Shown: one piece after another, positions 6,197 to 38,985 of the stretch
Layout of the letters: each line of letters starts with the position of its first letter
How positions within the stretch are numbered: the stretch's first letter is position 1
IMG/VR virus record: IMGVR_UViG_3300012041_000006
Span: 1 to 52,693 of that record
Origin: a virus
Lineage: Duplodnaviria; Caudoviricetes
Length of the DNA stretch: 52,693 bases
Strand: one strand, 5' to 3'
Made by a program: the position numbers and the translations under genes
Notes under the pieces: generated by a model
Databases searched by the model: none
The model's input: the letters and a program-made list of their open reading frames with translations, nothing else
Told to the model about the DNA's origin: nothing

Positions 6197-6712
6197 ATGG
6201 CAACGAAGACTCAGAAGGCGAAGACAGGTACGAAGACACGTGCAGGCTCGGCTGCAAAGGCCAAGGCGACTGGCGCGAAGCGTGGTGCTCCGAAGGGACC
6301 GCGCGAAGCAATCGTCACGCCAGAAAAGGCGACGTTTGAGACGGATGACAAACGCGCGCAATACGCTCGTCTCGTCATCTTCAATTTCGCGCGGTCTGCG
6401 AACAGCAAGGCGAAGGTAGCCAAGAGCGTCGATGTGAACTCTGTGTCAGACGCAGTGCTCACGCAGGCGGGCAAGGAGCTCGTCGGGGGCACCATGATCA
6501 AGGGCCAGGATGGCCTCGATCTGATCATGTCTCTGTCGAAGGAGGGATCCACCACAGGGCGTCCACTCACGCGGGCATACGCTGCCGAAGTGCGGCCGTT
6601 CCTGAAGCGTCTCAAGCTCGCTCCTCAGTTCGGACGTCGCGGTGGTAAGCGCAAGGCGGCGGACAACGGAGGCGAGACGGCGGAAGCGCCTGCAGAGGCA
6701 CCCGCCGAGTAG
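6197..6712 (+). CDS. Lys/Ala-rich basic protein, possibly nucleoid-associated
   Basis: Strong GGAGAGGAGG RBS; MATKTQKAKTGTKTRAGSAAKAK N-tail; own promoter and terminator. Confidence 0.75.
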   Translation: MATKTQKAKTGTKTRAGSAAKAKATGAKRGAPKGPREAIVTPEKATFETDDKRAQYARLVIFNFARSANSKAKVAKSVDVNSVSDAVLTQAGKELVGGTMIKGQDGLDLIMSLSKEGSTTGRPLTRAYAAEVRPFLKRLKLAPQFGRRGGKRKAADNGGETAEAPAEAPAE

Positions 6713-6717
6713 TAGGT

Positions 6718-6755
6718 GATGCGAGGGGTCACTGCGGTGGCCCCTTCATCATTTT
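6718..6755 (+). terminator. Intrinsic terminator
   Basis: AGGGGTCAC-TGCG-GTGGCCCCT hairpin followed by a short T run. Confidence 0.65.
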
Positions 6756-6927: not shown

Positions 6928-7068
6928 ATGCGTGACACAACTGCATCCACTATCCTTTGGGCTGAGGCAATCTGGTACATCTGGGTCCTGCCCGCTCTTT
7001 CTCTCTACTTCCTCTTCTGCGGAATCATGTTCAATGTCATCGTCATCCTACTACTCGTTTGGGGGTAA
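6928..7068 (+). CDS. 46-aa membrane protein (below the ORF-track cutoff)
   Basis: MRDTTASTILWAEAIWYIWVLPALSLYFLFCGIMFNVIVILLLVWG; GGGAG RBS. Confidence 0.6.
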   Translation: MRDTTASTILWAEAIWYIWVLPALSLYFLFCGIMFNVIVILLLVWG

Positions 7069-7071
7069 GAC

Positions 7072-7299
7072 ATGGCAGACGTCATTTCCGACCAGCACGG
7101 AGCGGAGGCAGTACGCACCAGGCTGAACGTAGTGGATCCTGGCAAGAAGGGATACAACAAGTTCTTCGGTACCCCAACAGCATCGAACGAGGGAACAGCA
7201 ATCAAGTTGATCAATGGCCACAATGAGGTGTTCAGGCCTGGAGGAGTCGCGGACGATGTTGCAGATCTGAAGAGGGATCTGAACCGCCGCCCTTTCTGA
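7072..7299 (+). CDS. 75-aa protein; short product of a putative -1 frameshift gene
   Basis: Ends CGC CCT TTC TGA, directly on a slippery heptamer. Confidence 0.7.
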   Translation: MADVISDQHGAEAVRTRLNVVDPGKKGYNKFFGTPTASNEGTAIKLINGHNEVFRPGGVADDVADLKRDLNRRPF

Positions 7300-7952
7300 C
7301 ATCCCATCGCGGAACACTCTTCACTGTTCCCGATGGATCTGCAGAGTCATTCACAGATGACGTCTCCTGGGTCGCGTGCAACCTTGAGTACGCGCCTCAG
7401 CAGTGGTCCAAGGTTCGATCTCGCGCAGCGTCTCTCGGTGTTCGTGTCATCCCATGGACTCGCCTGGCCCACATAGAACATGGGGACACGTGGGACGACG
7501 TGAAGACACGTTTGGCCCTTCTTGTCGCAACTGCGACAACATGGGGCGAGAACATTATCATGCCGAACTACGAGAACGAGGCTGAGACATTCTCCCCCTC
7601 TTCCATCGCAGATCACCTCTACGGCGTCATGAACTGGACTGGAGAGACAGGATGGTCGACGCAAGCATGGCTTCCGAACTCACCTGACTTTAGTCCTCTA
7701 GCAGACAGGGGTGACTCTGTCCATCTGCAAATCTTCCCGCAGGACAACCGCTGGGAACCGTGGCAAATTCCAGGGAAGTTGGGTGACTGCGTTGCACATG
7801 CGCGTGTAGACAAAGGCTTCCGGTTCGTTGGAGTGACCTATCAGACGTACGCAGGAGCGATCCCTGCGTGGTACGACTGCGGTGCGTTCATGCACTCGTC
7901 GTTCCCAGGGAACCTGATTGGTCATGGGGAGTGGGGGACGTGGTATAAGTGA
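7072..7952 (+). CDS. Putative -1 frameshift fusion (~293 aa) with a C-terminal glycoside-hydrolase-like TIM-barrel domain
   Basis: The -1 frame is open from 7227 to 7952 with no ATG/GTG before 7500; reads ...RRPFLTSHRGTLF...WVACNLEY...RAASLGVRVIPW...MPNYENE. Confidence 0.6.
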
Positions 7953-8107
7953 TCTGGCCGTCTGCTCTCGTATTCGCACTCACCGCAACTGGCCTGAGTT
8001 TGGTCGTCAACGATTCCTCCTGGTTCACCCAGATCGGCTGCGCGATGCTCGGCGTTGTGGCTGCGCTTTTCTGGACACGGTTATCAAACCAAGAGGACAG
8101 GCCATGA
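7949..8107 (+). CDS. 52-aa protein with two predicted TM segments
   Basis: MIWPSALVFALTATGLSLVVNDSSWFTQIGCAMLGVVAALFWTRLSNQEDRP; GTGA and ATGA overlaps with both neighbours. Confidence 0.65.
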   Translation: MIWPSALVFALTATGLSLVVNDSSWFTQIGCAMLGVVAALFWTRLSNQEDRP

Positions 8108-8490
8108 GGCGTCAGCTTCGCTTGGTGTGGAACGTCTTACGTGGGCGTCCGGTTGCCTACCGGATAGAAGTCCGAGATGGTGTGCTGTGGGTTCCATCCG
8201 GAGGGATGGTCGTTGAGTGCGCCTTCCTCGGTAGGTCGGGGTTGCGGGAAGCACAAAGCCAAGATATGACACGTGATCCAGCTACGACAGACATGGGCGC
8301 GGTCATAGCTGACGATCACTGGCACGAGCGACACTCGAATCAAGCTTCGACAGCCTGCGCCTGCATTGGCCCACCTGCTGACGATGGTGACCTAAGGTGT
8401 GTCTGTGCAAGACTCGCAGCAGAGGAAGGTCACCCCTGGGAACGTTGGAAAAATTATGTTGCCCCACGAAAGCAGGATACACCGACTTGA
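8104..8490 (+). CDS. Hypothetical protein with Cys-rich C-terminus
   Basis: ATG at 8104 overlaps the previous stop (ATGA); CACIGP...CVC. Confidence 0.6.
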   Translation: MRRQLRLVWNVLRGRPVAYRIEVRDGVLWVPSGGMVVECAFLGRSGLREAQSQDMTRDPATTDMGAVIADDHWHERHSNQASTACACIGPPADDGDLRCVCARLAAEEGHPWERWKNYVAPRKQDTPT

Positions 8491-9913: not shown

Positions 9914-11722
9914 ATGCCTAAAGAGAACATCATCCAGGAGACACTCAAGGGCAGGCGCAAGACAGTCACCCACAGGCACCACGTGTGGATCGACGGGAGG
10001 TGGATTATGTACTCCCCCTCTCACGGAATCGGATCTGTGGCGCGTGAGATGAGGGAAATTGGAGGAAGGTGGGAAAAGAAAACCCAAGCGTTCCGGCTCC
10101 CTCGTCTCACTCGCATGGTGAGATTCCTTTCAGAGTTTGATCCTGATGCCTCTATGGTTCCAGATCTTAAACGACACCTGAAAGGTACATGGGAAGAGAC
10201 AGATTCAGAGGTTTGGAGAGCGATCTGGCATGACTCGTGGCATCAAGGGTATGACAAATTGTACCCGTACCAGAAAGAAGCAGTGCACGCACTTGCAACG
10301 CGACCCTACCATGGTGAGTTGCTGACGCTATCTCCTGGCCTTGGTAAGACGCCAACGTCGATTGTTGCAGCTGAGCACTATATGGCAGAGTTTGGAAACT
10401 CACAGCGTATCCTTGTTGTCGCTCCCCTCTCGTTGCTGCACAACTGGGAACGTGAGATCGAACGTTGGGCGTCGGACACACGTGTTGAGGTGTGTCACCA
10501 GGAGTCGCCTACTGAGGACCGTAGTGTACGGTGGACGGTTACGAACTACGACTCGATCATGGAGAGGATTAAGGACCCAACGTCCAACCGTACTGTTGTC
10601 ACAGGGAACCTGAAAGAAGAGTGGGACCTCGACTGGGATGTAGTCATCTTTGATGAGTCAGTGCTCTTGAAGAACCGCAAAGCAAAGAGGACACAGGCAG
10701 CACGCACTCTCGCACGAGCAGCGAAACGTGTGTGGTTGCTGTCAGGTGCACCTATCACTCGTGACAACTCAGACATCTGGGCACAGTTTAACATCATGGA
10801 ACCAGACTACTTCACCTCCTTCTGGCGATACGCAGAAGAAGCATGCGTCGTCGTCAAGACGCAGTGGTCAATGGGTGAGATTTTGGGGTCGCGCAAGGAC
10901 TTCGATACAAGGCACGAGTATCCAGAGATCATGTTCGTGCGTAACCAAGAAGAGGTGTTTGAGGACTTACCTGAATACCTTTATCAGGAGGTTGAGATAA
11001 CTCTTGACCCAAGACAAGCAAAAGCTCATGAAGATGTTTTGCAGACATGGATACATGAATTAGAAGAGAACAGAGACAAACGAGTTGAGGTTACAGCAGT
11101 AATTGCTATGTTGACACGCCTCATGCAGATAACTAGTTCTCTTTACAATCTAGAAACAACCGGAAAAGAGTGGCCTGATGTGTCTGCTAAAGCAGATTAC
11201 ATCTGTGAAGAGTTAAACAACGGAGAGTTTGAACTCCCTGCTCTTGTGTGGGTACACCACAGGCCAGGCGCTCATGCATTGCGTGACAGGTTGGTGAAAC
11301 TAACCAAGAAGAAAGAATCAGCAATGTACGGAAAGAGAATTGAACTTGTTCTCGGGGGAATGAAGAAAGGTGTGGCAGATACTCTCATCGAAGAGTATAA
11401 AGCAGGGAAGATAGATGTTCTTCTCATGGGGCTAACTGTCGGTAAGTTCGGCCATTCTTTAGCGGTTACACGTACTGCTGTTTATTTTGATAAAGTGTGG
11501 GATGTCGATGCCCTAGTACAATCATTTCACAGAGTAGCAGGTGCCCGTGCCAAGATCACAGGTTATACCCACAAACCAAGACTCATCACACTCCGCTGTC
11601 GTGGAACAGTGGATGACTTTGTTGAACTCAACCTCGCTGGTAAGCTACCCAGCATTGCTCGTATTACTGGAGCGGATCTCTCCAAAATGCTTAGAGCACT
11701 TGGAGAAGACCTTGTGCAGTAA
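9914..11722 (+). CDS. SNF2-family (SF2) helicase/ATPase
   Basis: LYPYQ Q-motif; SPGLGKT; VVAPLSLLHNW; VIFDES; LSGAPI; C-terminal QSFHRV. Confidence 0.9.
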   Translation: MPKENIIQETLKGRRKTVTHRHHVWIDGRWIMYSPSHGIGSVAREMREIGGRWEKKTQAFRLPRLTRMVRFLSEFDPDASMVPDLKRHLKGTWEETDSEVWRAIWHDSWHQGYDKLYPYQKEAVHALATRPYHGELLTLSPGLGKTPTSIVAAEHYMAEFGNSQRILVVAPLSLLHNWEREIERWASDTRVEVCHQESPTEDRSVRWTVTNYDSIMERIKDPTSNRTVVTGNLKEEWDLDWDVVIFDESVLLKNRKAKRTQAARTLARAAKRVWLLSGAPITRDNSDIWAQFNIMEPDYFTSFWRYAEEACVVVKTQWSMGEILGSRKDFDTRHEYPEIMFVRNQEEVFEDLPEYLYQEVEITLDPRQAKAHEDVLQTWIHELEENRDKRVEVTAVIAMLTRLMQITSSLYNLETTGKEWPDVSAKADYICEELNNGEFELPALVWVHHRPGAHALRDRLVKLTKKKESAMYGKRIELVLGGMKKGVADTLIEEYKAGKIDVLLMGLTVGKFGHSLAVTRTAVYFDKVWDVDALVQSFHRVAGARAKITGYTHKPRLITLRCRGTVDDFVELNLAGKLPSIARITGADLSKMLRALGEDLVQ

Positions 11723-12296
11723 AGGAAGAAAAGAAGGCTATCTTGCTGCACTTCTTGACGGTGAGGGTTCAGTAGCCAAAGCTTCAGAAAAGGTGGCGGT
11801 TATTTACAACTCAGATCCTGACTTGATTGCAGCAGGTATTTTCTGTTCTGTGCATTTGGGTTTTGAGTCACTCACTCTGTCAGTTAATTCTGTTAAAGGC
11901 TACAAAGACATGTGGACTCTCCATTTTTACACACAGAGTAGTTTTCGTAAGTTGTTGCAAACTCCCCTACAGGTAAGAAATAAAATCTCAAGGCTAGAAG
12001 CCATTCTAGCTTCATATAAGGGGAGACAGCGTAAAGATTGGTCTAGGACAAGTGCAGTACGATTTCATAACCAAGGGTGGTCACCAGTACAGATTGCTAA
12101 ACGTTTGGGGGTAGACTACACAACCATTGAGTTTTACTTTAAGTCAAAAGGGATTAAGAAAAATACCAGGCCTCCTTCTAGACATGGAACACACTCAAAG
12201 TACGGAATGGGATGTAGGTGTGAACCTTGCAAAGAAGCTAATAGAGTTTACAAGCGTGAATGGTACCACAAAAACAAACAGAGAAAGGAGGCATGA
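11712..12296 (+). CDS. Free-standing LAGLIDADG homing endonuclease with C-terminal HTH and HG..Y..GCRC..C motif
   Basis: GYLAALLDGEGSV; SPVQIAKRLGVDYTTI; HGTHSKYGMGCRCEPC; AT-rich; TTG start inferred from GGAG. Confidence 0.75.
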   Translation: MCSKGRKEGYLAALLDGEGSVAKASEKVAVIYNSDPDLIAAGIFCSVHLGFESLTLSVNSVKGYKDMWTLHFYTQSSFRKLLQTPLQVRNKISRLEAILASYKGRQRKDWSRTSAVRFHNQGWSPVQIAKRLGVDYTTIEFYFKSKGIKKNTRPPSRHGTHSKYGMGCRCEPCKEANRVYKREWYHKNKQRKEA

Positions 12297-12660: not shown

Positions 12661-13389
12661 TTGCGTAGTGTGTGCGCATATGCACACAATTCTGTAGTTC
12701 CAGCAACATGCCCTGTCAGCGAAGGAAGGAAAGGGATCATCGGTGTCAGAGTATTCATACTCGTTACGGTTATATGTGTCGGATTAACCGGCGCAAGTTC
12801 AGGAGCGGCTCAGCCCACAGTAATTGGTAAGGCGCCTGTCGCCAAGAGAACATCCGCTCCCCCTCTTACAGGTTCATGTCCATACGCTCGTCTAGGTGTC
12901 GCCTTCTATCGAGGGCGATTCATTCAACACCAGGTGCAGCGCAATGCTTCTATCCCCTCGTGGCGTAAACCTCGCAACTGTGCAGACGCACGGTACCTCG
13001 CTTTCGTCTGGGCGAGGGGAGCCTACGCCTCTCGTATGCAGACGAAGAAACATCTAGAGGCACTTGAAGCAAGAAGGAACGAGCACCCACGAGACATAGC
13101 GCTCAGGTTGCTCCAAGGTGACAGAGTGCAGTGGGGATGTCTCATGTCGATTGTCGCAGGAGAGAATCGAGCGATGATTCCCACTCTCGATTTCGGAGGT
13201 GGTCACGGCAACGTCTACGAGGCGTATGGAATCCCTCAAGCGAATCCAGGGTACAAGATGAGGAGTGCAGGCCCTGACTGGCGCACGAACCCAGAGACAC
13301 AACTACGTTGGATGATCGGATACTGCCGTGGACGGTATGGATCGGTGTGCGGTGCAGCACGCGCTCGTCGCACGCAAGGGTGGTACTAG
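12661..13389 (+). CDS. Secreted lytic transglycosylase (SLT/lysozyme-like, actinobacterial type); start uncertain
   Basis: WGCL...E; AYGIPQANPG.KM.SAGPDWRTNPETQLRW...Y..GRYG; signal-peptide-like N-region. Confidence 0.85.
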   Translation: MRSVCAYAHNSVVPATCPVSEGRKGIIGVRVFILVTVICVGLTGASSGAAQPTVIGKAPVAKRTSAPPLTGSCPYARLGVAFYRGRFIQHQVQRNASIPSWRKPRNCADARYLAFVWARGAYASRMQTKKHLEALEARRNEHPRDIALRLLQGDRVQWGCLMSIVAGENRAMIPTLDFGGGHGNVYEAYGIPQANPGYKMRSAGPDWRTNPETQLRWMIGYCRGRYGSVCGAARARRTQGWY

Positions 13390-18313: not shown

Positions 18314-18784
18314 ATGGAATCCGGGGAACAGACTACCAGAGTGGAAGATACAGATCCACACGGGCACAGGTTCCTCGGCTCAGGGGTGTCAGCGTCGCAA
18401 GAACCTTTTGCGGCGCTGACATCTCAGGGTTCGGGCGCGTACATTGGATTGGAGACATTTCCAAACCCAGGGTGCGTCATCGTCAAGTACACATCTGACG
18501 AGGTAGTGGCCAGGTGTCCAGTTACAGGCCAGCCTGACTACTACGTGTGCGAGATCACACTGCGGGAAGCAACAAAGCTCATCGAGTCGAAGAGTTTAAA
18601 GATCTGGTTCAACAACATCCACGAGAACACAATGAAGGGAGAGGCACCTGGTCTCTTCTGTGAGTCGCTCGCCGTATTCATACGCGACCAGGTAGCAGAA
18701 ATCACAGATACAGAACAAGAGAACGTACAGGTCAGGCTCACGCAGAAGTCGCGTGGCGGAATCTCAATCGAGTCAGTCGCATGA
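18314..18784 (+). CDS. queF: preQ0 nitrile reductase QueF
   Basis: CPVTGQPDY; QueF motif ESKSLK; C-terminal RGGI. Confidence 0.85.
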   Translation: MESGEQTTRVEDTDPHGHRFLGSGVSASQEPFAALTSQGSGAYIGLETFPNPGCVIVKYTSDEVVARCPVTGQPDYYVCEITLREATKLIESKSLKIWFNNIHENTMKGEAPGLFCESLAVFIRDQVAEITDTEQENVQVRLTQKSRGGISIESVA

Positions 18785-19185
18785 GTGAGATTTCTTACGA
18801 GATGACGTTCGATGCAGGGCACCGCATCGTCGGTCACAAGGGCAAGTGCGCTCGTCTGCACGGACATACGTACAAGGTCCACATCATGGCTTCTGGTCCT
18901 GTGTCTCCCCCTGGGTTTGTCGTTGACTTCGGTGACCTCAAGGAGATTGTCAACGAGTGGGACCACATGCTCTTGCTATGGGATCAGGATCCCTTTGTTG
19001 AGAATTGGCTTACTATAACTCAGGTAAGGGAAGCAGGAATTGTCGCTGTGTCTTTCAACCCAACAGCAGAACACATGTCGGAGTACCTCTGTCGCAGGTT
19101 CGTGGACGAGTTCTCACTCTTCTCTTGCATGGTTGAACTGTGGGAGACACCAAAGTGCATGGCAAGGTACGTGATCGAAGGATGA
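18781..19185 (+). CDS. queD: 6-carboxy-tetrahydropterin synthase QueD
   Basis: FDAGHR...CARLHGHTY; VVDFGDLK; DH; NPTAE; WET. Confidence 0.93.
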   Translation: MSEISYEMTFDAGHRIVGHKGKCARLHGHTYKVHIMASGPVSPPGFVVDFGDLKEIVNEWDHMLLLWDQDPFVENWLTITQVREAGIVAVSFNPTAEHMSEYLCRRFVDEFSLFSCMVELWETPKCMARYVIEG

Positions 19186-19919
19186 GGAGGTTCCGTGTTG
19201 CAGAGATCTTTGGACCCACAATCCAAGGTGAGGGTCGCCACATTGGCATACCTTGCCATTTCATTAGGTTCGGTGGGTGCGACTATAGGTGTAGTTGGTG
19301 CGATTCACCTCACGCTGTTCTACCTTCTCTTGTTGCTGAACTACCACAGAAAACAGATGAGGAGATCTGGGATGAGGTTCGTGCACTCCCGAAGGTCCGC
19401 TGGGTCGTCTACTCGGGTGGGAACCCTGCCCTCCTAGATCTTTCCCTCTTGACCTCGTACCTGAATGGTGACGGGTACTCAGTCATGATCGAGACACAGG
19501 GTACTGTGTGGAAAGACTGGATGGGTTACGTCGATGAGGTCTGTGTGTCACCGAAACCACCGTCCTCTGGAAACGCGACTCAGGCAGACACAGTTGACGA
19601 GTTTCTCTATCATATTCCAGATAACCGTGCATACCTCAAGGTGGTTGTGTTCGATGACGACGACTACAACTACGCCAAGTGGGTTCATGGAGTGTTCCCA
19701 GGGAGGGAAATGTTCATCTCAGCAGGAAACGAGGATCCGTACCTACCTACAGTAGACAACCCGAACCCAACACCTGGAACTATTCACTACACAAGAGATG
19801 TCATCCTCGACAAGATGGTGTGGCTCATGGAGAAGGTTGCAAACGATGAGTTCATGAGAGATGTTCGTGTGTTGCCTCAGATGCACGCCTTGGCGTGGGG
19901 CAATGTGAGGGGAAGATGA
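19182..19919 (+). CDS. queE: 7-carboxy-7-deazaguanine synthase QueE (radical SAM)
   Basis: [11 protein letters not shown]; [16 protein letters not shown]; SGGNP; ETQG; SPKPPSS; LPQMH. Confidence 0.95.
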
Positions 19920-20512
19920 CTGTTATCGACAGTCCTGGATATAAAGGTACCATCGTACGCGATTCTGTGACAACGATCCTCGATGCTATAGGCGAGGACG
20001 TCGGGCGTGAAGGACTGCGCGAGACGCCTGCACGTGTGCGGCGCTCGATGGGTGAACTCACACGTGGGTACCGTGAGGATCCTAGAGAATGGTTCCGCGT
20101 GTTCGATGCAGAAGGCGCTGACCAGATGGTGTGCCAGTGGAACATCCCGACCTACTCACTCTGTGAGCACCACATGCTGCCATTCACAGGGTACACTCAC
20201 ATCGGGTACATCCCGAAAGAGAAGATCGCTGGCCTGTCGAAGTTCAAGCGTGTAGTAGATATGTACGCACGGCGCCTGCAAGTTCAAGAGCGTCTGACGC
20301 GACAGGTTGCCGAGTTTCTAGAAGGAGAACTCAAACCGAGAGGAGTAATGGTTGTCGTAGAAGCAGAACATCTCTGCATGACCATGCGCGGCGTGCAGGC
20401 GCCAGGTACATTGACGACGACGTCTGCCGTAACAGGTGATTTCCAAGACCCAGCAGAAGGGTCGCGCGATGAGTTCTTGACCCTTCTCGGACACTCAAAG
20501 GAGAGACGATAG
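19916..20512 (+). CDS. folE: GTP cyclohydrolase I FolE
   Basis: [11 protein letters not shown]; [10 protein letters not shown]; GLSK; [10 protein letters not shown]; HLCMTMRG. Confidence 0.96.
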
Positions 20513-20781
20513 TGGACCAAGAAACATTCCTGTCACGCTTGCGTGGCTCATTTCCATACAAAGGAGAGACGACAATGGAAGGTAGAGATGCAGTTGCTTC
20601 ACTGTGTGGTCTTGTTCTTCGGCGCCTTCAAGATGACGTGGGCGTTACTGGGGTGGGTGACGAAGACCACACCCCAGTCACCGTTTCGGATCTGCGTAAG
20701 ATTTTTGGTGAGGCGCTTGAGCAGTTCTCCAAGCCAGAACAGTCAGACACACTGAGGAAGAATGAGGAGGACGGCTCATGA
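20512..20781 (+). CDS. Hypothetical protein within the que cluster
   Basis: 89-aa ORF coupled to folE and queC. Confidence 0.6.
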   Translation: MDQETFLSRLRGSFPYKGETTMEGRDAVASLCGLVLRRLQDDVGVTGVGDEDHTPVTVSDLRKIFGEALEQFSKPEQSDTLRKNEEDGS

Positions 20782-21527
20782 GTGGAGCACTCGTTGTTCT
20801 ATCTGGAGGACTCGACTCATGTGTCGCACTCGCACTCGCGTGCAAAGAGCATAAGCGTGTCGAGACCTTGTCCTTCTCTTATGGACAGAGACACACAGCG
20901 GAACTCAATGCTGCAGCGAAGATCGCAGATCACTACGAAGTAGGGCATACAGTGTTGACTATTCCGCTAGGTATGGGAGAGTCAGTGCTCATGGATCACA
21001 ATGCTGAAATGCCTCAGATGACGTACGAAGAACTTGAGCAATCACAAGGCCCTTCTCCTACCTATGTTCCGTACCGCAACGGCACGTTCCTGTCCCTTGC
21101 AGCGTCAGGTGCACTCGACATGGGCCTCGACTACATCTACGCAGGGATGCACGGTGAGGATGCACACAACTGGGCTTACCCTGACTGCACTCCAGAATTC
21201 ATTGGAGCAATGCAGAACGCTATCTATATCGGCACGTATTTCAAGGTGCGTCTTATCTGTCCATTCTCGTACTCGATGAAGAAAGAGATCATCCAGATTG
21301 GTCTCGATCTTGCAGCGCCTATCGAGTTGACGATGTCTTGCTATGAAGGACGCGACCCTGCATGTGGACGCTGTCCTACGTGCATTGCACGACTGGAGGC
21401 ATTCAAGTCACTTGGTGTCCAGGATCCGATCAGGTACAAGTTCGACACGTACAGGGATGGCCTCATGTCACGTGAGACAGTCAATGCGTCACTACGCCTG
21501 TCAAGGGAGTTGAGGAAGAATGTCTAG
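20778..21527 (+). CDS. queC: 7-cyano-7-deazaguanine synthase QueC
   Basis: VLSGGLDS; YGQRH..E; YVPYRN; YPDC; SCY...CGRCPTC..R. Confidence 0.96.
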   Translation: MSGALVVLSGGLDSCVALALACKEHKRVETLSFSYGQRHTAELNAAAKIADHYEVGHTVLTIPLGMGESVLMDHNAEMPQMTYEELEQSQGPSPTYVPYRNGTFLSLAASGALDMGLDYIYAGMHGEDAHNWAYPDCTPEFIGAMQNAIYIGTYFKVRLICPFSYSMKKEIIQIGLDLAAPIELTMSCYEGRDPACGRCPTCIARLEAFKSLGVQDPIRYKFDTYRDGLMSRETVNASLRLSRELRKNV

Positions 21528-21822
21528 CGTTCCTCCAATGAAGGCGCCAGTTCCTGCAGGTGGAGTCATCCTCGGTGAGCAGCCAAAGAGACCTCAACCC
21601 ACAAAAGAGGTGATCCACTTCCACAGTTGCATGATTGGCATCTACGTCATGCTCGATGAGAACAACATCTGCAAAGGGTACAAGGTGCAGATCAGAGATC
21701 CAATCTTCAACAGAGAGTACAACTTCGATGTGGACAACCAACAGGTATGGGACGAGATCGTGAAAGACATCCCCTCCTTCCCTAAGATTGGAGAAGTGCC
21801 TGAGGAGATCAAGAGTGACTGA
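21520..21822 (+). CDS. Hypothetical protein within the que cluster
   Basis: 100-aa ORF overlapping the queC stop. Confidence 0.6.
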   Translation: MSSVPPMKAPVPAGGVILGEQPKRPQPTKEVIHFHSCMIGIYVMLDENNICKGYKVQIRDPIFNREYNFDVDNQQVWDEIVKDIPSFPKIGEVPEEIKSD

Positions 21823-22324
21823 TCTCACAGAAGGAACAAAATTGGATGAGGATAAGGTTCCTGTCGATCTCCTCTCCCCACTCTGGCTCCTCGCGACCAG
21901 TCAGGTTCTTGACTTCGGTGCCAAGAAGTACGAACCGTATAACTGGGCAAAGGGAATTTCGTACTCACGTGTGTACGCAGCACTGAATCGACATCTCATG
22001 GCATGGTGGGTGGGTGAAGACGAAGATGAAGAGACAGGTATACATCATCTCGCCCATGCATCATGTTGTCTGATGTTCCTTACTCACTACGAGCTGGTTG
22101 GAGGGAGATACAGAGAGTATGACGATAGAGAACATGGAATTTTCGACCCGAATCAAGCGTCTCCGAAAGAACGAAACACCTCGGAAGAACTCAGTCGGGC
22201 ACGCGGACTCAGTGGAGAAGATCCTGAACCAACTGTCACTCCTGAGTCCAGAGACGCTTACCTACCAGTCGACCCTGAAGTCAGGGCGTTCGCGGATCGT
22301 GTCACTGAGCGCCAAGGTAGATGA
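21815..22324 (+). CDS. DUF5664-type dATP/dGTP diphosphohydrolase
   Basis: GTKLDEDK...DLL; FGAKKY..YNW.KG; AALNRHL..WW.GED.DEETG..HLAHA.CC..FL. Confidence 0.85.
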   Translation: MTDLTEGTKLDEDKVPVDLLSPLWLLATSQVLDFGAKKYEPYNWAKGISYSRVYAALNRHLMAWWVGEDEDEETGIHHLAHASCCLMFLTHYELVGGRYREYDDREHGIFDPNQASPKERNTSEELSRARGLSGEDPEPTVTPESRDAYLPVDPEVRAFADRVTERQGR

Positions 22325-22902: not shown

Positions 22903-23289
22903 ATGGCACTTACCCAAAAAGAAATTAGTCGTAGGTATTACCTCAAGCATAAAGAGAGAATAAAAGAAGAAGCTAGGAAGTACTACCATGACAACAAAGA
23001 AAAGTGTGCCCAACAGGGTAGGGAGTACTACCTAAAGAAGAGAAAAGATTATATTTCTCTTGTAGTGCAACTCAAAAGTGGTCCATGTGTTGACTGCAAG
23101 CAAACCTTCCACCCAGCAGCTATGGAATTCGACCACAGAGAAAGTAGTCCTAAAAACCAGAGTATAAGTGCAATGAGGAGCCATTCAATAGAAGCTATCC
23201 TTGATGAAGTTTCAAGGTGTGACCTCAGGTGTGCTAGTTGCCATAGGATTAGACATCTTAAGCACATGTATGATGAGGTGATGAGTTGA
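22903..23289 (+). CDS. HNH homing endonuclease
   Basis: CVDC...MEFDH...CDLRCASCHRIRH; AT-rich island. Confidence 0.85.
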   Translation: MALTQKEISRRYYLKHKERIKEEARKYYHDNKEKCAQQGREYYLKKRKDYISLVVQLKSGPCVDCKQTFHPAAMEFDHRESSPKNQSISAMRSHSIEAILDEVSRCDLRCASCHRIRHLKHMYDEVMS

Positions 23290-33700: not shown

Positions 33701-33927
33701 GTTGCGCCAGACACAGCCTGGAGAATGTTCATGCTCTGTTCAAAGTTACCAGCTGCACGCAAGGATAGGATCCCGATACCTGTAGTAGCCAGACCTATCC
33801 CAGCGAATATGCGGGAGGCTACCCCACCAGTCCTGATCATGGAGGAGTTCATAATAGCCATTGAACGGTAGAACCCGGAGGTATCTGCCGTTACTCTAGC
33901 TACCAGTTGCGCGACGGTCAGCGCCAC
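30775..33927 (-). CDS. Tail tape measure protein (TP901 family)
   Basis: 1050 aa; FEQSM...VSGAT; AGTALKTML..L; W-periodic amphipathic repeats. Confidence 0.93.
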   Translation of the reverse strand: MALTVAQLVARVTADTSGFYRSMAIMNSSMIRTGGVASRIFAGIGLATTGIGILSLRAAGNFEQSMNILQAVSGATEAQMKSLGDEAIALGGDFKLPNVSAKDAADAMVELSKGGLGVNRTLAATRGTLQLGLAANIGFADSATLVARALQAFDMQGSQSTRVANLFAAGANKSTAEITDLALGMQNAAAQFHGVGMPMEDLVASLSVLADNALSGEYAGTALKTMLIRLTSPTDKAAAVMKKYNMEIFDSAGNMKSMPAIIGEFQDGLSNLTQEQREQALTTIFGVRANQAMRILMGEGAEAYKKYRKEITGTNAAQKMAEARTKGLNGALGAVGSAAETLAIQLGTAMLPSVTAVVRAFANFIAAIDPQKIIGFFSAIKGGVVWVIELVRGSDLLQYALVALAGALTGMFVMTKIIAMVQAMKIAMLALNATMLMNPFVLAAAALVALGAAFFLAYQKSETFRKIVDSTFSWIKENVLPIIMEVVDAIRTHWGSIVEIVQTYLSLVRLYWEQTFGRILNFAIQNWDKIRSVIEAVLGNILILVKGYMTYVEGVINLVMGIIKGDWGRAWEGIKQIVDGILGTIIRLIWNTLTKLVPAVLGLAVAIGKAILTGIGNGIASLAGWLWDKIKSGTASAIASVVGWVGGAAAAIGRAIADGIISGIAGLPGRLAGAVKGAAQSALDSATSFLGIGSPSKLFADKIGKPIGDGIIMGFLLGTNDLPDKISESLKKALEAGRQVVEEFQSKFKDAFAQMASDALDAFDAITSAHRTRSERLLDNLVSKHDAEEFKRRLSEARTELQKAKDDMASFDAASFSSPEDAQAELDRRESALLNAQRSWDDLMYEQKRAKLERQAEKERTNYEARRGIQKRHLEKELENLMEYLLKHPQQHKKTQDKIIALLHSYGISYRDAGSVVGENFAQGLRDSMAAVIAAATEMANKVSRILRTASPTKEGPMSDLDKWWKSFGSTLVSGLDKSPVERAALALAGAMQPTAGGGYALAGSGTSTTGSMAPIVHQHIYGSLIYEQDLNDRIREAIIVEERRGRPVH

Positions 33928-34495
33928 CTACGTCGTCCTCTCTTGTTTTGCTGCGCTTCTGCGTGTGCCTCTGCGTCCATTGCCATCGTGGCAATTTCGA
34001 TCCAGGCTACAGACCGTTCTAGCAGTTCCCATGGCATGCACTTGTAATACTGTGCTGCTCTGATTACGAGGTACCACTGAGGGATTTCTCCGGTAGCTCC
34101 TCCTGTGGCGAGGAACTTTCGGAGCTGTCGTCCTTCGGATCTTTTGGGCGCACATCATTCATCATGGATGCAAAGATGAACCCAAGGGCAGGAAGAGGAA
34201 CCAACCGCAAACCTTCTGTGGTTGCAGGAACCTTCTGCACCTCTCCTGTTGGATTGCCATCTTCATCTACAACATCCATCTCTAGATCCCAATCCACAAG
34301 AATCAGAGATAGCATGTCCAAGATAGCGCCCGCTTCTGAATTGTCTCTGATCCCTGACTGAACTGACTCCACCACGTCGATGGTGAGTTCTCCAGGCTTG
34401 TAGTCAATCCACATCTGGCCTGGCTCAAACCCATCTTCTTCCTTGAAGATGATATCCACGTGACGGACACCACCTTTGAGTGCTGCAACTTTCAT
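33918..34495 (-). CDS. Tail assembly chaperone, -1 frameshifted long form (gpGT-like)
   Basis: In-phase slippery C CCA AAA at 34148-34142; -1 frame reads RSEGRQLRKFL...YYKCMPWELL... to TGA at 33918-33920. Confidence 0.78.
34064..34495 (-). CDS. Tail assembly chaperone, short form (gpG-like)
   Basis: Lies between major tail and tape measure genes; LVDWDL motif. Confidence 0.8.
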   Translation of the reverse strand: MKVAALKGGVRHVDIIFKEEDGFEPGQMWIDYKPGELTIDVVESVQSGIRDNSEAGAILDMLSLILVDWDLEMDVVDEDGNPTGEVQKVPATTEGLRLVPLPALGFIFASMMNDVRPKDPKDDSSESSSPQEELPEKSLSGTS

Positions 34496-38389: not shown

Positions 38390-38620
38390 TTACCCGAGGT
38401 GCATGGACCTCGTGAGACGGTGCACTGCTTCTGTGCGCTTCGACAGATCTGCCTGAGCAGACGTAGATACGAGAGCACAACCTGCAGCAAGGAACCCGTA
38501 TGCATCAGCCGTCGTGTCGTCAAGCGCGAGCACTGTCGTCTTACGAGCGACAGCAACCTGTGCATTGACGGTGACGTTTGCTGCTGTCGGGTTTGCAATT
38601 GCAACGTTGACTACAGCCAT
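38390..38620 (-). CDS. Small Ala/Val-rich protein (possible virion protein)
   Basis: 76 aa just downstream of capsid and endonuclease genes. Confidence 0.55.
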   Translation of the reverse strand: MAVVNVAIANPTAANVTVNAQVAVARKTTVLALDDTTADAYGFLAAGCALVSTSAQADLSKRTEAVHRLTRSMHLG

Positions 38621-38985
38621 TAAGCCACCTTCCTTTGTTGAGCTTCCTCAATGAAAGCAAGGCATTCTTCTGCCTTACCCTGCCTTCTCTGACCAAACTG
38701 AAACATCAGAAGTTTCAACACTCGACATACAGTTTCTCTTGAACCTGTGTGCCATGTGTAGCAAGGCTTGCAAAGTTCTCCATTCTTCTTAGGATACCTT
38801 TTATCGGCGTAGATCTCTCCACAACCAACAATGCTTTGAAACCTCTGAAGAACATCTTGGTCAGTGGAAGACACTCGCAAGGCTTGTGAAGGCCACGGAT
38901 ACTTAAGGGTGCCTCGGTAGAGGTAAATTGTACCTTCACCCCCAAACAGGCCTGCTGCCCAAGCGATGTCTTCCTTAGATGGCAC
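38620..38985 (-). CDS. Free-standing LAGLIDADG homing endonuclease
   Basis: IAWAAGLFGGEGTI; STDQDVLQRF..IVG.G; AT-rich. Confidence 0.8.
   Translation of the reverse strand: MPSKEDIAWAAGLFGGEGTIYLYRGTLKYPWPSQALRVSSTDQDVLQRFQSIVGCGEIYADKRYPKKNGELCKPCYTWHTGSRETVCRVLKLLMFQFGQRRQGKAEECLAFIEEAQQRKVA

Follow-up and report, generated by a model that had tools for sequence, protein, structure and literature searches.

How does a phage gene continue into a long enzyme-like domain when its reading frame closes directly in front of that domain? The question arises in the window, by which we mean the whole 52,693-nucleotide stretch of phage DNA analyzed here, a complete virus record with terminal repeats. 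A 75-aa open reading frame (ORF A) ends in CGC CCT TTC TGA, with the heptamer C CCT TTC (7290–7296) in phase as X XXY YYZ, and the −1 frame runs on into a second coding stretch (B). The preliminary description of this locus had proposed a programmed −1 frameshift yielding 75-aa and ~293-aa products. The end of ORF A and its heptamer, the AGAGGG element 13 nt upstream (7271–7276), and a −1 frame open for 218 codons with no ATG or GTG before 7500 (nor, as we found, any TTG) were all located as that description had them. The features of the region are as follows.

6928..7068, + strand: small hydrophobic ORF of 46 aa, a holin-like candidate (hydrophobic segment by hydropathy), directly 5' of ORF A
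7072..7299, + strand: ORF A, zero frame, 75 aa, with the C-terminus ...DLNRRPF followed by TGA (from the ORF list)
7271..7276, + strand: Shine–Dalgarno (SD)-like AGAGGG, a candidate upstream stimulator, separated by 13 nt from the heptamer
7288..7296, + strand: CGC CCT TTC, that is, an invariant Arg codon plus the slippery heptamer (from the sequence)
7297..7299, + strand: zero-frame stop TGA abutting the heptamer, followed by C (from the sequence)
7304..7336, + strand: hairpin of 12 pairs, CCATCG-C-GGAACA / TGTTCC-CGATGG, 7 nt 3' of the heptamer
7296..7952, + strand: B, −1 frame, 218 codons plus stop, predicted TIM-barrel domain (ORF and AlphaFold2 model)
7949..8107, + strand: ORF of 52 aa, two of its segments hydrophobic and its C-terminus charged, a holin-like candidate (hydropathy) with its GTG overlapping the B stop codon

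The −1 frame is open from 7227 to 7952 and reads ...PF followed by LTSHRGTLFTVPDG...; conceptual translation across the frames gives an A-B product of 293 aa with the junction ...RRPF-LTSHRG.... The first ATG, GTG or TTG of the −1 frame after the slip site lies at 7500. However, the alignment of homologues with B begins at about residue 7 of the 218-codon stretch; therefore, the 68 codons before 7500 belong to the domain, as had been suspected. The recorded gene product for the barrel in the window is a 146-aa protein (P0002). The barrel gene stands at the head of a replication and DNA-modification module, and tail genes are not adjacent.

The split junction in the window and its relatives

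We collected 12 distinct loci with a barrel homologue (L007 and L013 lie on the same contig as L001), of which L002, L009 and L011 are cut upstream, leaving nine informative ones. The gene is split in seven of the nine, namely the window, L001, L003, L004, L005, L010 and L012, and each of these has the same architecture: a zero-frame ORF ending in ..RRPF, the codons CGC CCT TTC, an immediate stop, and the barrel in the −1 frame. The stretch CGCCCTTTCT(G/A)AC is identical in all seven. The stop stands directly 3' of TTC (TGA in four loci, TAA in three) and is always followed by C. The nine bases CGCCCTTTC are invariant in the split loci and variable in the in-frame ones, and in all seven codons after the slip site the third position varies among the split loci. 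This identity is retained among barrels whose identity to that of the window falls from 72% to 45% and among upstream ORFs of at least three unlike types. One copy of the 13-mer CGCCCTTTCTRAC is present in the window, against 0.14 expected with one mismatch allowed, and each related split locus has exactly one, always at the junction; thus, the junction feature exceeds chance. In L004, a −1-frame stop lies only three codons before the Leu codon that follows the slip site, which confines the shift to CGC CCT TTC.

Could the split simply mark a lysin gene inactivated by the loss of one base, or an error of sequencing? A single base does separate the split from the in-frame form, and the bases at 7285–7300 had been singled out for a check of the assembly. 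Contigs from three runs span positions 7000–7462 with zero differences and zero gaps relative to the window (the record itself may derive from two of these runs, whereas X3 comes from another study), and the same frame arrangement recurs in six further loci from other contigs. Taken together, these observations show that the split is not an assembly error. A dead gene is likewise contradicted already, as the identical break lies at the same base in seven loci whose barrels are just 45–72% identical to that of the window, A and B are both open and under selection, and the virus record is complete with its terminal repeats. We give this explanation practically no credence.

The two remaining informative loci, L006 and L008, are natural in-frame fusions, with one frame running across the junction into the barrel. 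L006 carries one extra C (CGC CCC TTT CTG), and L008 reads CGT CCC TAC CTG. The difference of exactly one C between L006 and the split loci means that the insertion of one base would give the right frame, and RNA polymerase might in principle supply it by adding a base in the CCC or TTT run. Known cases of transcriptional slippage, however, need far longer runs of A or T than the three-base CCC and TTT runs here. A heptamer in X XXY YYZ phase, the abutting stop and an SD-like element at 13–16 nt are traits of ribosomal rather than transcriptional slippage, and restoration of the frame at the RNA level is extremely improbable. Stop-codon reassignment was also considered and rejected, since relatives use TAA and the barrel lies in a different frame.

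From the slip site onward, it is the −1 frame that is under selection, and by this measure the junction is translated in that frame. Over the seven codons after the slip site, pairwise comparisons gave synonymous and non-synonymous changes in a ratio of 134:60 for the −1 frame, compared with 41:172 and 3:206 for the other two frames. Over 16–18 codons of the four A-family loci, the corresponding values were 60:11, compared with 10:56 and 0:66.

The chief alternative to a fusion is that A and B are separate proteins and that B is started independently, at a non-canonical start or by termination–reinitiation. Gene callers give the barrel as a protein of its own, ~203–213 aa long and starting M[LF]TVPDG, on many contigs, and a start codon 7–8 codons past the slip site, near the upstream stop, is present in L003 and L004 (TTG) and in L005 and L010 (ATG). 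Consequently, a barrel-only product arising by re-initiation may coexist with A-B in these four loci. The seven codons before this usual Met are nevertheless under purifying selection in the −1 frame, and a start upstream of them is impossible, given the L004 stop and the codon that follows the slip site, which is the Leu codon CTA in three split loci. The same CTA codons exclude CTG at 7296, which had been named as a possible independent start. The interval from the upstream −1 stop to the slip site contains no ATG, GTG or TTG in any of the seven split loci, and downstream of the slip site none occurs for 68 codons in the window, 20 in L001 and 66 in L012, all of them part of the fold. The invariance of the nine bases in the split loci, compared with their variation in the in-frame ones, likewise speaks against independent initiation.

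The in-frame relatives bear on the same point. In L006, the A-like gene (982–1200, ending in RRPW and a stop) lies apart from the barrel gene, an arrangement that agrees with two separate proteins and indicates that the covalent link is not needed in every lineage. On the other hand, the L006 barrel has an N-terminal helix and ERPF of its own, and the split loci encode precisely this part in the zero frame. We therefore regard independent initiation of B, with no fusion, as quite improbable. Furthermore, the protein P0070 carries an A-like N-terminus (BLASTP E 9e-14) and the barrel (E 3e-15) in a single chain. Among the 126 representatives of the barrel family (clustered at 50% identity), an A-like profile lies N-terminal to the barrel in three and C-terminal to it in eight, and the in-frame junction motif RP[FY].xx[HT][RS]G occurs in six. 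With its seven split loci, its in-frame fusions and its selection on the −1 frame, the comparison of relatives strongly supports the predicted programmed −1 ribosomal frameshift and upholds the two products originally proposed.

Candidate stimulatory elements and the proposed slip

The SD-like element accompanies the split form. Its predicted duplex with the anti-SD sequence has an energy of −6.3 kcal/mol in the window and −6.3 to −11.4 kcal/mol across the seven split loci, compared with −1.7 kcal/mol in the two in-frame loci and a background median of −3.1 kcal/mol. SD-like pairing is thus found in seven of seven split loci and in neither in-frame locus, with a spacing of 13–16 nt to the heptamer. 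In a synonymous-recoding control, the element reached a Fisher p of 3e-4 over the seven loci and of 0.018 over the four independent types of upstream ORF; in L005 and L012, this control does not separate the element from amino-acid choice.

The hairpin behaves differently. It is present in the window as first described, with arms at 7304–7316 and 7325–7336 that form 12 pairs with one bulged C and an 8-nt loop. RNAfold gives it −17.9 kcal/mol (z −3.29), and only one of 200 dinucleotide shuffles folds as well. It is stabler than 98% of synonymous recodings (fraction as stable 0.0175), and the window is the only locus whose hairpin beats 95% of them. Across the seven loci, 73.8% of the cells pair, compared with 32–48% when the partners are slid, and the covariation score is 0.20, compared with 0.10 for slid partners; this pairing follows partly from the conserved peptides G-T ... 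T-V-P. The hairpin is clear in the window and weaker in L003, L004 and L010, and neither folding nor synonymous recodings revealed it at the corresponding place in L001, L005 or L012. By these comparisons the hairpin is strong in the window, yet it is no conserved part of the signal. Homologues keep the split and the heptamer, as had been expected of them, and the expectation that they would also keep the hairpin fails in three of the seven split loci.

How, then, might the two products arise? Most ribosomes would translate ORF A, terminate at the UGA abutting the heptamer and release the 75-aa A. Some ribosomes would slip back one base on C CCU UUC, either because the Pro and Phe tRNAs both re-pair to CCC UUU or because only the Phe tRNA slips, with the stop codon then in the A site. 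The shifted ribosomes would read CUG ACA UCC... and go on for 218 codons to give the 293-aa A-B. The slip is probably helped by the SD-like element and by the adjacent stop in its weak context (UGA C), and in the window phage the 12-bp hairpin 7 nt downstream is probably a further aid. To our knowledge, C CCU UUC is not among the most efficient heptamers in E. coli, which may not be the host. The slip, its efficiency, the substrate of the enzyme and the role of free A are points that we infer.

A close model for such a signal is E. coli dnaX (tau/gamma), in which A AAA AAG is flanked by an upstream SD and a downstream hairpin and the shifted product is the truncated one. As in dnaX, the heptamer here is an in-phase X XXY YYZ with an SD-like element upstream (about 10–14 nt in dnaX, 13 nt here) and a hairpin downstream (a few bases away in dnaX, 7 nt here), and two products would come from one mRNA, in a ratio that for dnaX is set. 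Unlike dnaX, the heptamer is C CCU UUC, and the hairpin is unconserved across the family. Furthermore, with the zero-frame stop placed immediately after the heptamer, ribosomes that do not shift would make the shorter product, and a whole enzyme domain would be gained by shifting.

Fold and probable function of the barrel

B was modeled by AlphaFold2 with a pLDDT of 90.4 as eight strands alternating with helices, a TIM barrel, which bears out the barrel of the preliminary description. The same cannot be said of the GH25 label attached to it. Pfam gave no family up to E 1 for the window protein, Glyco_hydro_25 and Glyco_hydro_18 included, and the best folds are of the GH18 type. By title, chitinases, further GH18 enzymes and proteins with a GH18 fold make up 38 of the best 40 VIA-align rows (rank 30, an insect chitinase, is counted as GH18 type, and rank 34, GH164, is an exception, with others below rank 40). 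Z is 12.8–15.8 and rmsd about 3.1–3.9 Å over 203–217 residues, in round figures 3.2 Å over some 210 of the 218. No GH25 lysozyme title stands among the best 50 VIA-align rows and the Foldseek matches listed, an absence from these lists that by itself does not count against a GH25-type barrel.

Sequence searches placed the barrel in no described family. It had no match in Pfam, PHROGs or NCBIfam (CofH-type models scored 15–16 bits, against cut-offs of 374–1018), none of the 31 aligned barrel homologues matches a glycoside hydrolase family in Pfam, and a PDB sequence profile search returned chance-level rows only. The BFVD fold search gave only weak generic barrels at E 1e-4 or worse, and in the ESM Atlas B fell among unnamed clusters, the nearest named one (DUF4434 in 23% of members) scoring 0.87, which we take as a lead only. 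Searches of the INPHARED phages with A, B and the region matched nothing at either the DNA or the protein level. In genome_contigs, neither a relative by protein pattern nor a match to the junction DNA pattern was found, and in viral_contigs the contig of L001 was the sole match to the junction pattern.

The model suggests where the active site may lie. Strand 4 ends in I-I-M-P-N-Y-E-N-E, and N91, Y92, E93 and E95 are invariant in the 31 sequences; of the 28 residues that are invariant, 15 are located in the C-terminal half of a strand or at most five residues beyond it. N91-Y92-E93-x-E95, where strand 4 ends, is a part of the probable active site. In GH18 enzymes, strand 4 bears the motif DxxDxDxE. 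The barrel resembles the GH18 group (chitinases, endo-beta-N-acetylglucosaminidases, the spore cortex-lytic SleL) in its eight strands and in having an acidic motif where strand 4 ends. It differs in its identity of 6–14%, in its length of 218 aa compared with about 280–400, and in its motif, N-Y-E-x-E compared with DxDxE, the two being likened by position; DxxDxDxE as such is absent from the barrel.

What could such an enzyme do? We scanned 106 of the 126 representatives for Pfam domains (the 20 left unscanned are mostly short). In 14 of the 106, PG_binding_1 (12) and/or Peptidase_M23 (4) follows the barrel on its C-terminal side, and Pfam's own cut-off is reached in 11 of these 14; these relatives are distant, with profile E of 1e-15 to 1e-4. 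Part of one relative, P0122, matches an endolysin PHROG. Furthermore, small membrane ORFs, identified by hydropathy only, lie beside the barrel gene in the window and in L003, L010, L005 and L011. From the fusions to peptidoglycan-binding and M23 domains and the flanking membrane ORFs, we conclude that the barrel most likely serves as the catalytic part of a lysin (peptidoglycan hydrolase), of an undescribed family with a GH18-like fold, in line with the lysin idea first put forward. The other idea offered at that time, a capsid decoration protein with an enzymatic extension, is unsupported: the structural module does not include this gene, and relatives repeatedly pair the A-like module with the barrel as a domain partner.

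The frameshift could also be real and the barrel not a lysin. It might act on another glycan (capsule, exopolysaccharide or teichoic acid) or have a non-hydrolytic TIM-barrel role within the DNA-modification module. The missing family match fits such a role, as do Foldseek matches that are generic TIM barrels (E about 1e-4), and the gene has replication and 7-deazaguanine genes as its neighbours, whereas the VIA-align listing is dominated by GH18-type folds and includes a spore-cortex lytic enzyme. Pfam recognises no wall-binding domain in 92 of the 106 relatives, to be set against the wall-related partners of the other 14 and the endolysin match of P0122. The phage also has a second wall-active candidate, an ORF at 12661–13389 with a transglycosylase/aggregation-promoting-factor C-terminal-like domain; on the other side stand the small membrane ORFs flanking the barrel gene in five loci, those beside it in the window (6928–7068 and 7949–8107) having no family match. 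We judge a non-lysin role unlikely, and it appears quite probable that a single gene yields two forms by programmed −1 frameshifting, the long one carrying a probable lysin barrel.

Module A, product ratio and comparison with known systems

ORF A was modeled as helical with low confidence (pLDDT 66.6). It had no match in Pfam, PHROGs or NCBIfam (phrog_24938 appeared at E 0.27), and the ESM Atlas held nothing usable for it. Its C-terminal ...LNRRPF recurs in all five other database homologues. The idea of a diverged PG_binding_1 domain was not supported, as hhalign of the A family against the PG_binding_1 segments of nine relatives gave a probability of 2%. We take A to be an accessory module, one that is found repeatedly with the barrel.

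Could the frameshift serve as a stoichiometry device? Free A, the default product, and rare A-barrel chains might assemble through A into a heteromeric lysin, an idea that we hold tentatively and consider rather unlikely. If it were true, the lysin complex would have one or a few catalytic subunits, and the locus would achieve by recoding, with an N-terminal module, what isoform endolysins of Gram-positive phages achieve by an internal start. Since a weak stop (UGA C, with UAA C in relatives) directly follows the slip site, the share of full-length product would follow release-factor activity and the translational state of the cell, and the dose of lysin, hence the timing of lysis, would be tied to host physiology.

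Those endolysins offer the nearest functional comparison. CTP1L is reportedly an endolysin with two polypeptides made through an internal in-frame start. PMC9430671 describes two-polypeptide endolysins from one gene with an internal in-frame start, whose products can form heteromers. As there, one lysin gene would give a full-length enzyme and a free non-catalytic module, which in those endolysins is in excess. In those, the free module is C-terminal and in the same frame, whereas here it would be N-terminal and result from termination, and a change of frame is required for the full-length form. A and A-B begin at one start and diverge toward the C-terminus, where A stops at 7299 in the other frame; we therefore rejected the internal in-frame start (iTSS) type for this gene, because its two forms share a start and not a stop.

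Frameshifts in phage structural genes are known from the lambda G/GT tail assembly chaperone and T7 gene 10A/10B. A frameshift in the major head protein of Lactobacillus phage A2 is referenced in PMC10885494, which also cites (as its reference 35) a lactococcal lysin gene of 1994 as containing a frameshift. Like lambda G/GT, T7 10A/10B and A2, the present locus is predicted to shift by −1 at a conserved site close to where its first ORF ends, and so to extend a minor share of an abundant short protein at the C-terminus, and related phages with in-frame or separate forms exist. Unlike them, the gene is non-structural, the extension is a probable 218-aa catalytic domain, and what is made without a shift would be an accessory module belonging to a lysin-like enzyme. 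According to the PRFect paper, annotations of programmed frameshifts in phages are almost confined to tail chaperone genes and a small number of capsid genes. In the literature on endolysin frameshifting and on GH18-like TIM-barrel endolysins, judged partly by titles and abstracts, we found no account of a system like this one.

The present case thus lies in a non-structural, probably lytic gene and has a compact signal made up of the heptamer, the abutting stop and the candidate SD-like element upstream, for which the in-frame revertants among the relatives, which have lost it, are natural controls. It offers a testable model in which a phage sets the dose or the subunit ratio of a lysis enzyme by recoding, and recoding in lysis genes may be under-counted. 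It also brings to light an unannotated family of TIM-barrel wall hydrolase candidates with a recurrent A-like partner module, whose barrels gene callers report truncated or with wrong starts.

Under the tentative stoichiometry idea, the separate, the frameshift-joined and the either-order fused arrangements would be evolutionary settings of the A:A-B ratio. In a tree of 36 barrels, which has a midpoint root only, the split loci are scattered within a 26-row clade, the in-frame pair L006 and L008 is nested among them, and the distant in-frame fusions fall outside that clade.

Conservation and translation of the split gene

In the window, a 75-aa zero-frame ORF (ORF A, or A) stops at a heptamer, C CCT TTC, from which a -1 slip would lead into 218 open codons (B, hereafter the barrel), giving a 293-aa product (A-B). 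Each element listed in the preliminary description was found where it had been placed:

7072-7299, + strand: ORF A, 75 aa, with the final codons CGC CCT TTC TGA
7271-7276, + strand: SD-like AGAGGG, 13 nt from the heptamer
7290-7296, + strand: heptamer C CCT TTC, in phase with ORF A
7304-7316 and 7325-7336, + strand: arms of a hairpin beginning 7 nt past the heptamer (-17.9 kcal/mol, z -3.29)
7227-7952, + strand: open -1 frame, with its first ATG, GTG or TTG at 7500

Could the split be an assembly error or a decaying gene? We compared positions 7000-7462 with contigs from three sequencing runs, two of them a possible source of the record and one from another study, and found 0 differences and 0 gaps. 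As the same split also occurs in diverged loci, both explanations, including the extra base in the raw sequence considered previously, are therefore excluded.

A word-index protein search with the 218 -1-frame codons as the query returned 31 proteins, most of which are 203-213 aa long and begin with M[LF]TVPDG, a start that falls seven to eight residues inside the -1-frame stretch of the window. One protein, P0012 (232 aa), contains in frame the peptide ...AERPFLTSHRGTLLTVPDG, the exact junction expected from a -1 slip in the window. The DNA set comprised 12 distinct loci (L007 and L013 lie on the same contig as L001), of which L002, L009 and L011 end before the junction, leaving nine informative loci. 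The split was present in seven (the window, L001, L003, L004, L005, L010 and L012). In all seven, the upstream ORF ends in ..RRPF, its last three codons being CGC CCT TTC, directly followed by the stop codon (TGA in four, TAA in three) and a C, and the barrel lies in the -1 frame. Barrel identity to the window ranged from 72% down to 45% among the loci compared, and at least three dissimilar kinds of upstream ORF occur, with only a C-terminal helix and RRPF in common; the other five database homologues of ORF A all end in ...LNRRPF. In the other two, the near-identical pair L006 and L008, the gene is uninterrupted: the junction of L006 reads CGC CCC TTT CTG, with one extra C, and that of L008 reads CGT CCC TAC CTG, with the slipperiness lost. 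A maximum-likelihood tree built from 36 barrels scattered the split loci across a 26-row clade (support 87/85), with the L006/L008 pair inside a 21-row subclade (98/95) and the distant in-frame fusions outside. With a midpoint root only, the tree may be read as a single origin of the split, followed by a reversion.

Which frame is used across the junction? From the slip site to the usual Met position, the nine loci encode L-T-[SKR]-[HTE]-R-G-[TAS], with the third position varying in all seven codons, and the pairwise synonymous:non-synonymous changes were 134:60 in the -1 frame versus 41:172 and 3:206 in the others. In the four loci with an A-family upstream ORF, the ratio over 18 codons past the slip was 60:11 in the -1 frame versus 10:56 and 0:66 in the shifted frames (16 codons); over the 18 codons before it, the zero frame gave 14:39, the best of the three frames and a weak signal. 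The nine bases CGCCCTTTC are invariant in the split loci, despite the 6, 4 and 2 synonyms available for their three codons. Furthermore, in all seven split loci the -1 frame lacks a canonical start from its upstream stop to the slip site. In L004, this stop lies just three codons 5' of the Leu codon that follows the slip site, which therefore confines the frame change to CGC CCT TTC. Because the Leu codon is CTA in L001, L004 and L010, it is not a start, and the alternative that CTG at 7296 acts as an independent start is excluded. Start codons seven to eight codons past the slip site in four split loci could yield a barrel-only product besides.

Probable recoding signal and proposed mechanism

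An SD-like element was found 13-16 nt 5' of the heptamer in all seven split loci. Its anti-SD duplex energies were -6.3 to -11.4 kcal/mol versus a background median of -3.1, ranking in the best 2% of the background in four of the seven; the two in-frame loci gave -1.7. Compared with synonymous recodings of the same peptides, the element gave a Fisher's p of 3e-4 over the seven non-independent loci and of 0.018 over four independent upstream types, the motif in L005 and L012 being nearly forced by the amino acids. For the hairpin, 73.8% of cells pair across the loci versus 32-48% with slid partners, and the covariation score, for a structure taken from the window itself, was 0.20 versus 0.10, a value reached by 3 of 500 shuffles. 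The pairing of its core is explained by GGN ACN ... GTN CC, codons that are conserved. When compared with synonymous recodings, the hairpin stood out in the window only (0.0175; 0.11 in L010, 0.14 in L004 and 0.23 in L003), and it is absent from L001, L005 and L012. Thus, of the signal described initially, the heptamer and the upstream SD hold in all seven split loci (seven of the nine informative ones, as does the split itself), but the hairpin does not. In our reading, the heptamer, the stop abutting it and the SD-like element form the conserved signal, and the hairpin is a putative lineage-specific enhancer.

The conserved split, the selection in the -1 frame and the in-frame relatives argue for the -1 frameshift proposed earlier, with its 75-aa and ~293-aa products; from these comparisons, it is very probable that a programmed slip at C CCT TTC joins A to the barrel. 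Ribosomes translating ORF A would reach C CCU UUC UGA, where most would terminate and free A, while a fraction would slip one base back to make the 293-aa protein. The slip could involve the Pro and Phe tRNAs in tandem, or the Phe tRNA alone with the stop codon waiting in the A site; either route would give the identical protein, and the data are compatible with both. One message would thus yield much A and little full-length enzyme. To our knowledge, C CCU UUC is not among the most efficient heptamers of E. coli, a reference that may not resemble the host.

The signal would work like those of dnaX, phage G/GT and T7 10A/10B, but here it lies in another gene class and would add a whole enzyme domain to an accessory module. 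The PRFect paper (PMC10885494) names lysin genes among those 'known to contain a frameshift', citing a 1994 lactococcal phage study, and the nearest functional analogy is the two-polypeptide endolysins made via internal starts (PMC9430671). In the literature searched on phage endolysins, frameshifting and TIM-barrel lysins, we found no description of this barrel family or its frameshift.

Fold and relatives of the barrel and ORF A

The barrel was modelled with eight strands alternating with helices (pLDDT 90.4, pTM 0.87). In a VIA-align search against 48,161 chains, chitinases, other GH18 enzymes and GH18-fold proteins made up 38 of the best 40 rows (Z 12.8-15.8, rmsd about 3.2 A over about 210 of 218 residues, identity 6-14%). 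Foldseek gave E values of about 4e-5 or worse, the leading matches being a GH18-like protein and the PgaB C-terminal domain. The barrel sequence had no match in Pfam, PHROG, NCBIfam or the PDB, and no GH25 entry was among the structural matches listed from either search; the earlier GH25-like label is not supported, and the nearest folds among those matches are GH18 enzymes. Of the 28 invariant barrel residues, 15 fall within the C-terminal half of a strand or no more than five residues beyond it, on the face where TIM barrels usually carry the active site. N91-Y92-E93-x-E95 is among them and lies at the strand 4 end, where distant relatives retain N-x-E-x-[EN].

A profile search among 1.84 billion representatives found 126 proteins at E <= 1e-3: 34 have at least 60 residues before the barrel, 43 have at least 60 after it, 6 are fragments and the other 43 consist of the barrel alone, a group in which mis-called split genes would be expected. 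We scanned 106 of them for domains, leaving out 20 mostly short ones, and found wall-related domains C-terminal to the barrel in 14 (PG_binding_1 in 12, Peptidase_M23 in 4), 11 of which reach Pfam's own cut-offs. Judged by domain content, this combination is the architecture of modular wall hydrolases, and the barrel itself is probably one. Two further recurrent N-terminal extensions of about 90-120 aa, neither with a Pfam match, precede the barrels of distant relatives (P0068, P0100, P0126, P0144, P0146 and P0074, P0082, P0088, P0093, P0094); one is Trp/Arg-rich (..WPIPLPAWFWPWVRW..) and the other begins MTDREAL....

The model of ORF A is small, helical and poor (pLDDT 66.6). In one relative, P0070 (335 aa), a single chain begins with an A-like segment (BLASTP E 9e-14 against ORF A) and also holds a barrel (E 3e-15). 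An A-like profile placed the module on the N-terminal side of the barrel in P0070, P0139 and P0161 and on its C-terminal side in eight proteins, and six of the 126 representatives carry the junction motif (R)P[FY]...[HT][RS]G in frame. In L006, an A-like gene (982-1200; 72 aa, E 4e-5) stands alone, two genes 5' of the barrel gene, and ends in ...LDELLRRPW and TGA without a slippery site. From these arrangements, the A-like module and the barrel are seen to occur in three ways: as separate genes, as parts apparently joined by frameshifting, or fused in either order. Because the A-like module in relatives occupies the place of others' wall-binding domain, the comparison suggests that A is an accessory binding or assembly module. 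A relationship of ORF A to PG_binding_1 was tested and was unsupported.

Two further observations concern L006. A 75-aa ORF follows the A-like gene (982-1421 region), its GTG overlapping that gene's stop in the -1 frame relative to it. The barrel gene's own N-terminal helix and ERPF resemble a duplicated C-terminus of A.

Genome setting

The virus record that forms the window (52,693 bp, G+C about 52%) is complete and has direct terminal repeats; no tRNA genes were found in it. The structural module (terminase, portal, major head protein, tape measure and tail proteins) occupies the minus strand at about 28-52 kb. The plus-strand module, at about 6-27 kb, encodes a DUF932 protein, an SNF2-type helicase, a UDG-family protein, a PD-(D/E)XK nuclease, a Sak4-like protein, a 7-deazaguanine precursor pathway, a dATP/dGTP diphosphohydrolase-like protein and a family A DNA polymerase. 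The A-B gene lies near its head, 3' of a terminator-like hairpin (6723-6746):

6197-6746 region, + strand: 171-aa Lys/Ala-rich ORF without a family match, then the terminator-like hairpin
6928-7068, + strand: small hydrophobic ORF, 46 aa, 5' flank of the A-B gene
7949-8107, + strand: small hydrophobic ORF, 52 aa, with two hydrophobic segments and a charged tail, 3' flank of the A-B gene
12661-13389, + strand: 242-aa ORF; its C-terminal 57 residues match phrog_12661 'transglycosylase' (E 1.9e-17)
18314-22324 region, + strand: 7-deazaguanine precursor genes (GTP cyclohydrolase I, PTPS/QueD, QueE-like radical SAM protein, QueC)
21788-22324, + strand: protein with a dATP/dGTP diphosphohydrolase N-terminal domain, 3' of the precursor genes
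11541-12296 (+), 22903-23289 (+) and 38620-38985 (-): three HNH endonuclease-like ORFs, one of which separates the major head protein gene from the head-tail genes

The terminator-like hairpin may delimit a unit made up of A-B and its two flanking membrane ORFs, and comparable small hydrophobic ORFs lie beside the barrel gene in L003, L010, L005 and L011. These flanking ORFs and the wall-domain fusions favor the lysin of the preliminary description; the placement of A-B among replication genes was counted against it. The last 57 residues of the 242-aa ORF also match the NCBIfam 'aggregation-promoting factor C-terminal-like domain' (E 7e-21); with these matches, its product may be a second cell-wall-active candidate of the phage, a point likewise counted against A-B as the lysin. 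The precursor genes and the diphosphohydrolase-like protein suggest that guanine in the phage DNA is replaced or modified.

An ORF of about 128 aa (8104-8490, + strand) starts near the stop of the 52-aa membrane ORF. In the region 33927-34495 (- strand), a 143-aa ORF without a family match (34064-34495) lies directly upstream of the tape measure gene, a position that we take to be the expected place of the tail assembly chaperone and its usual frameshift.
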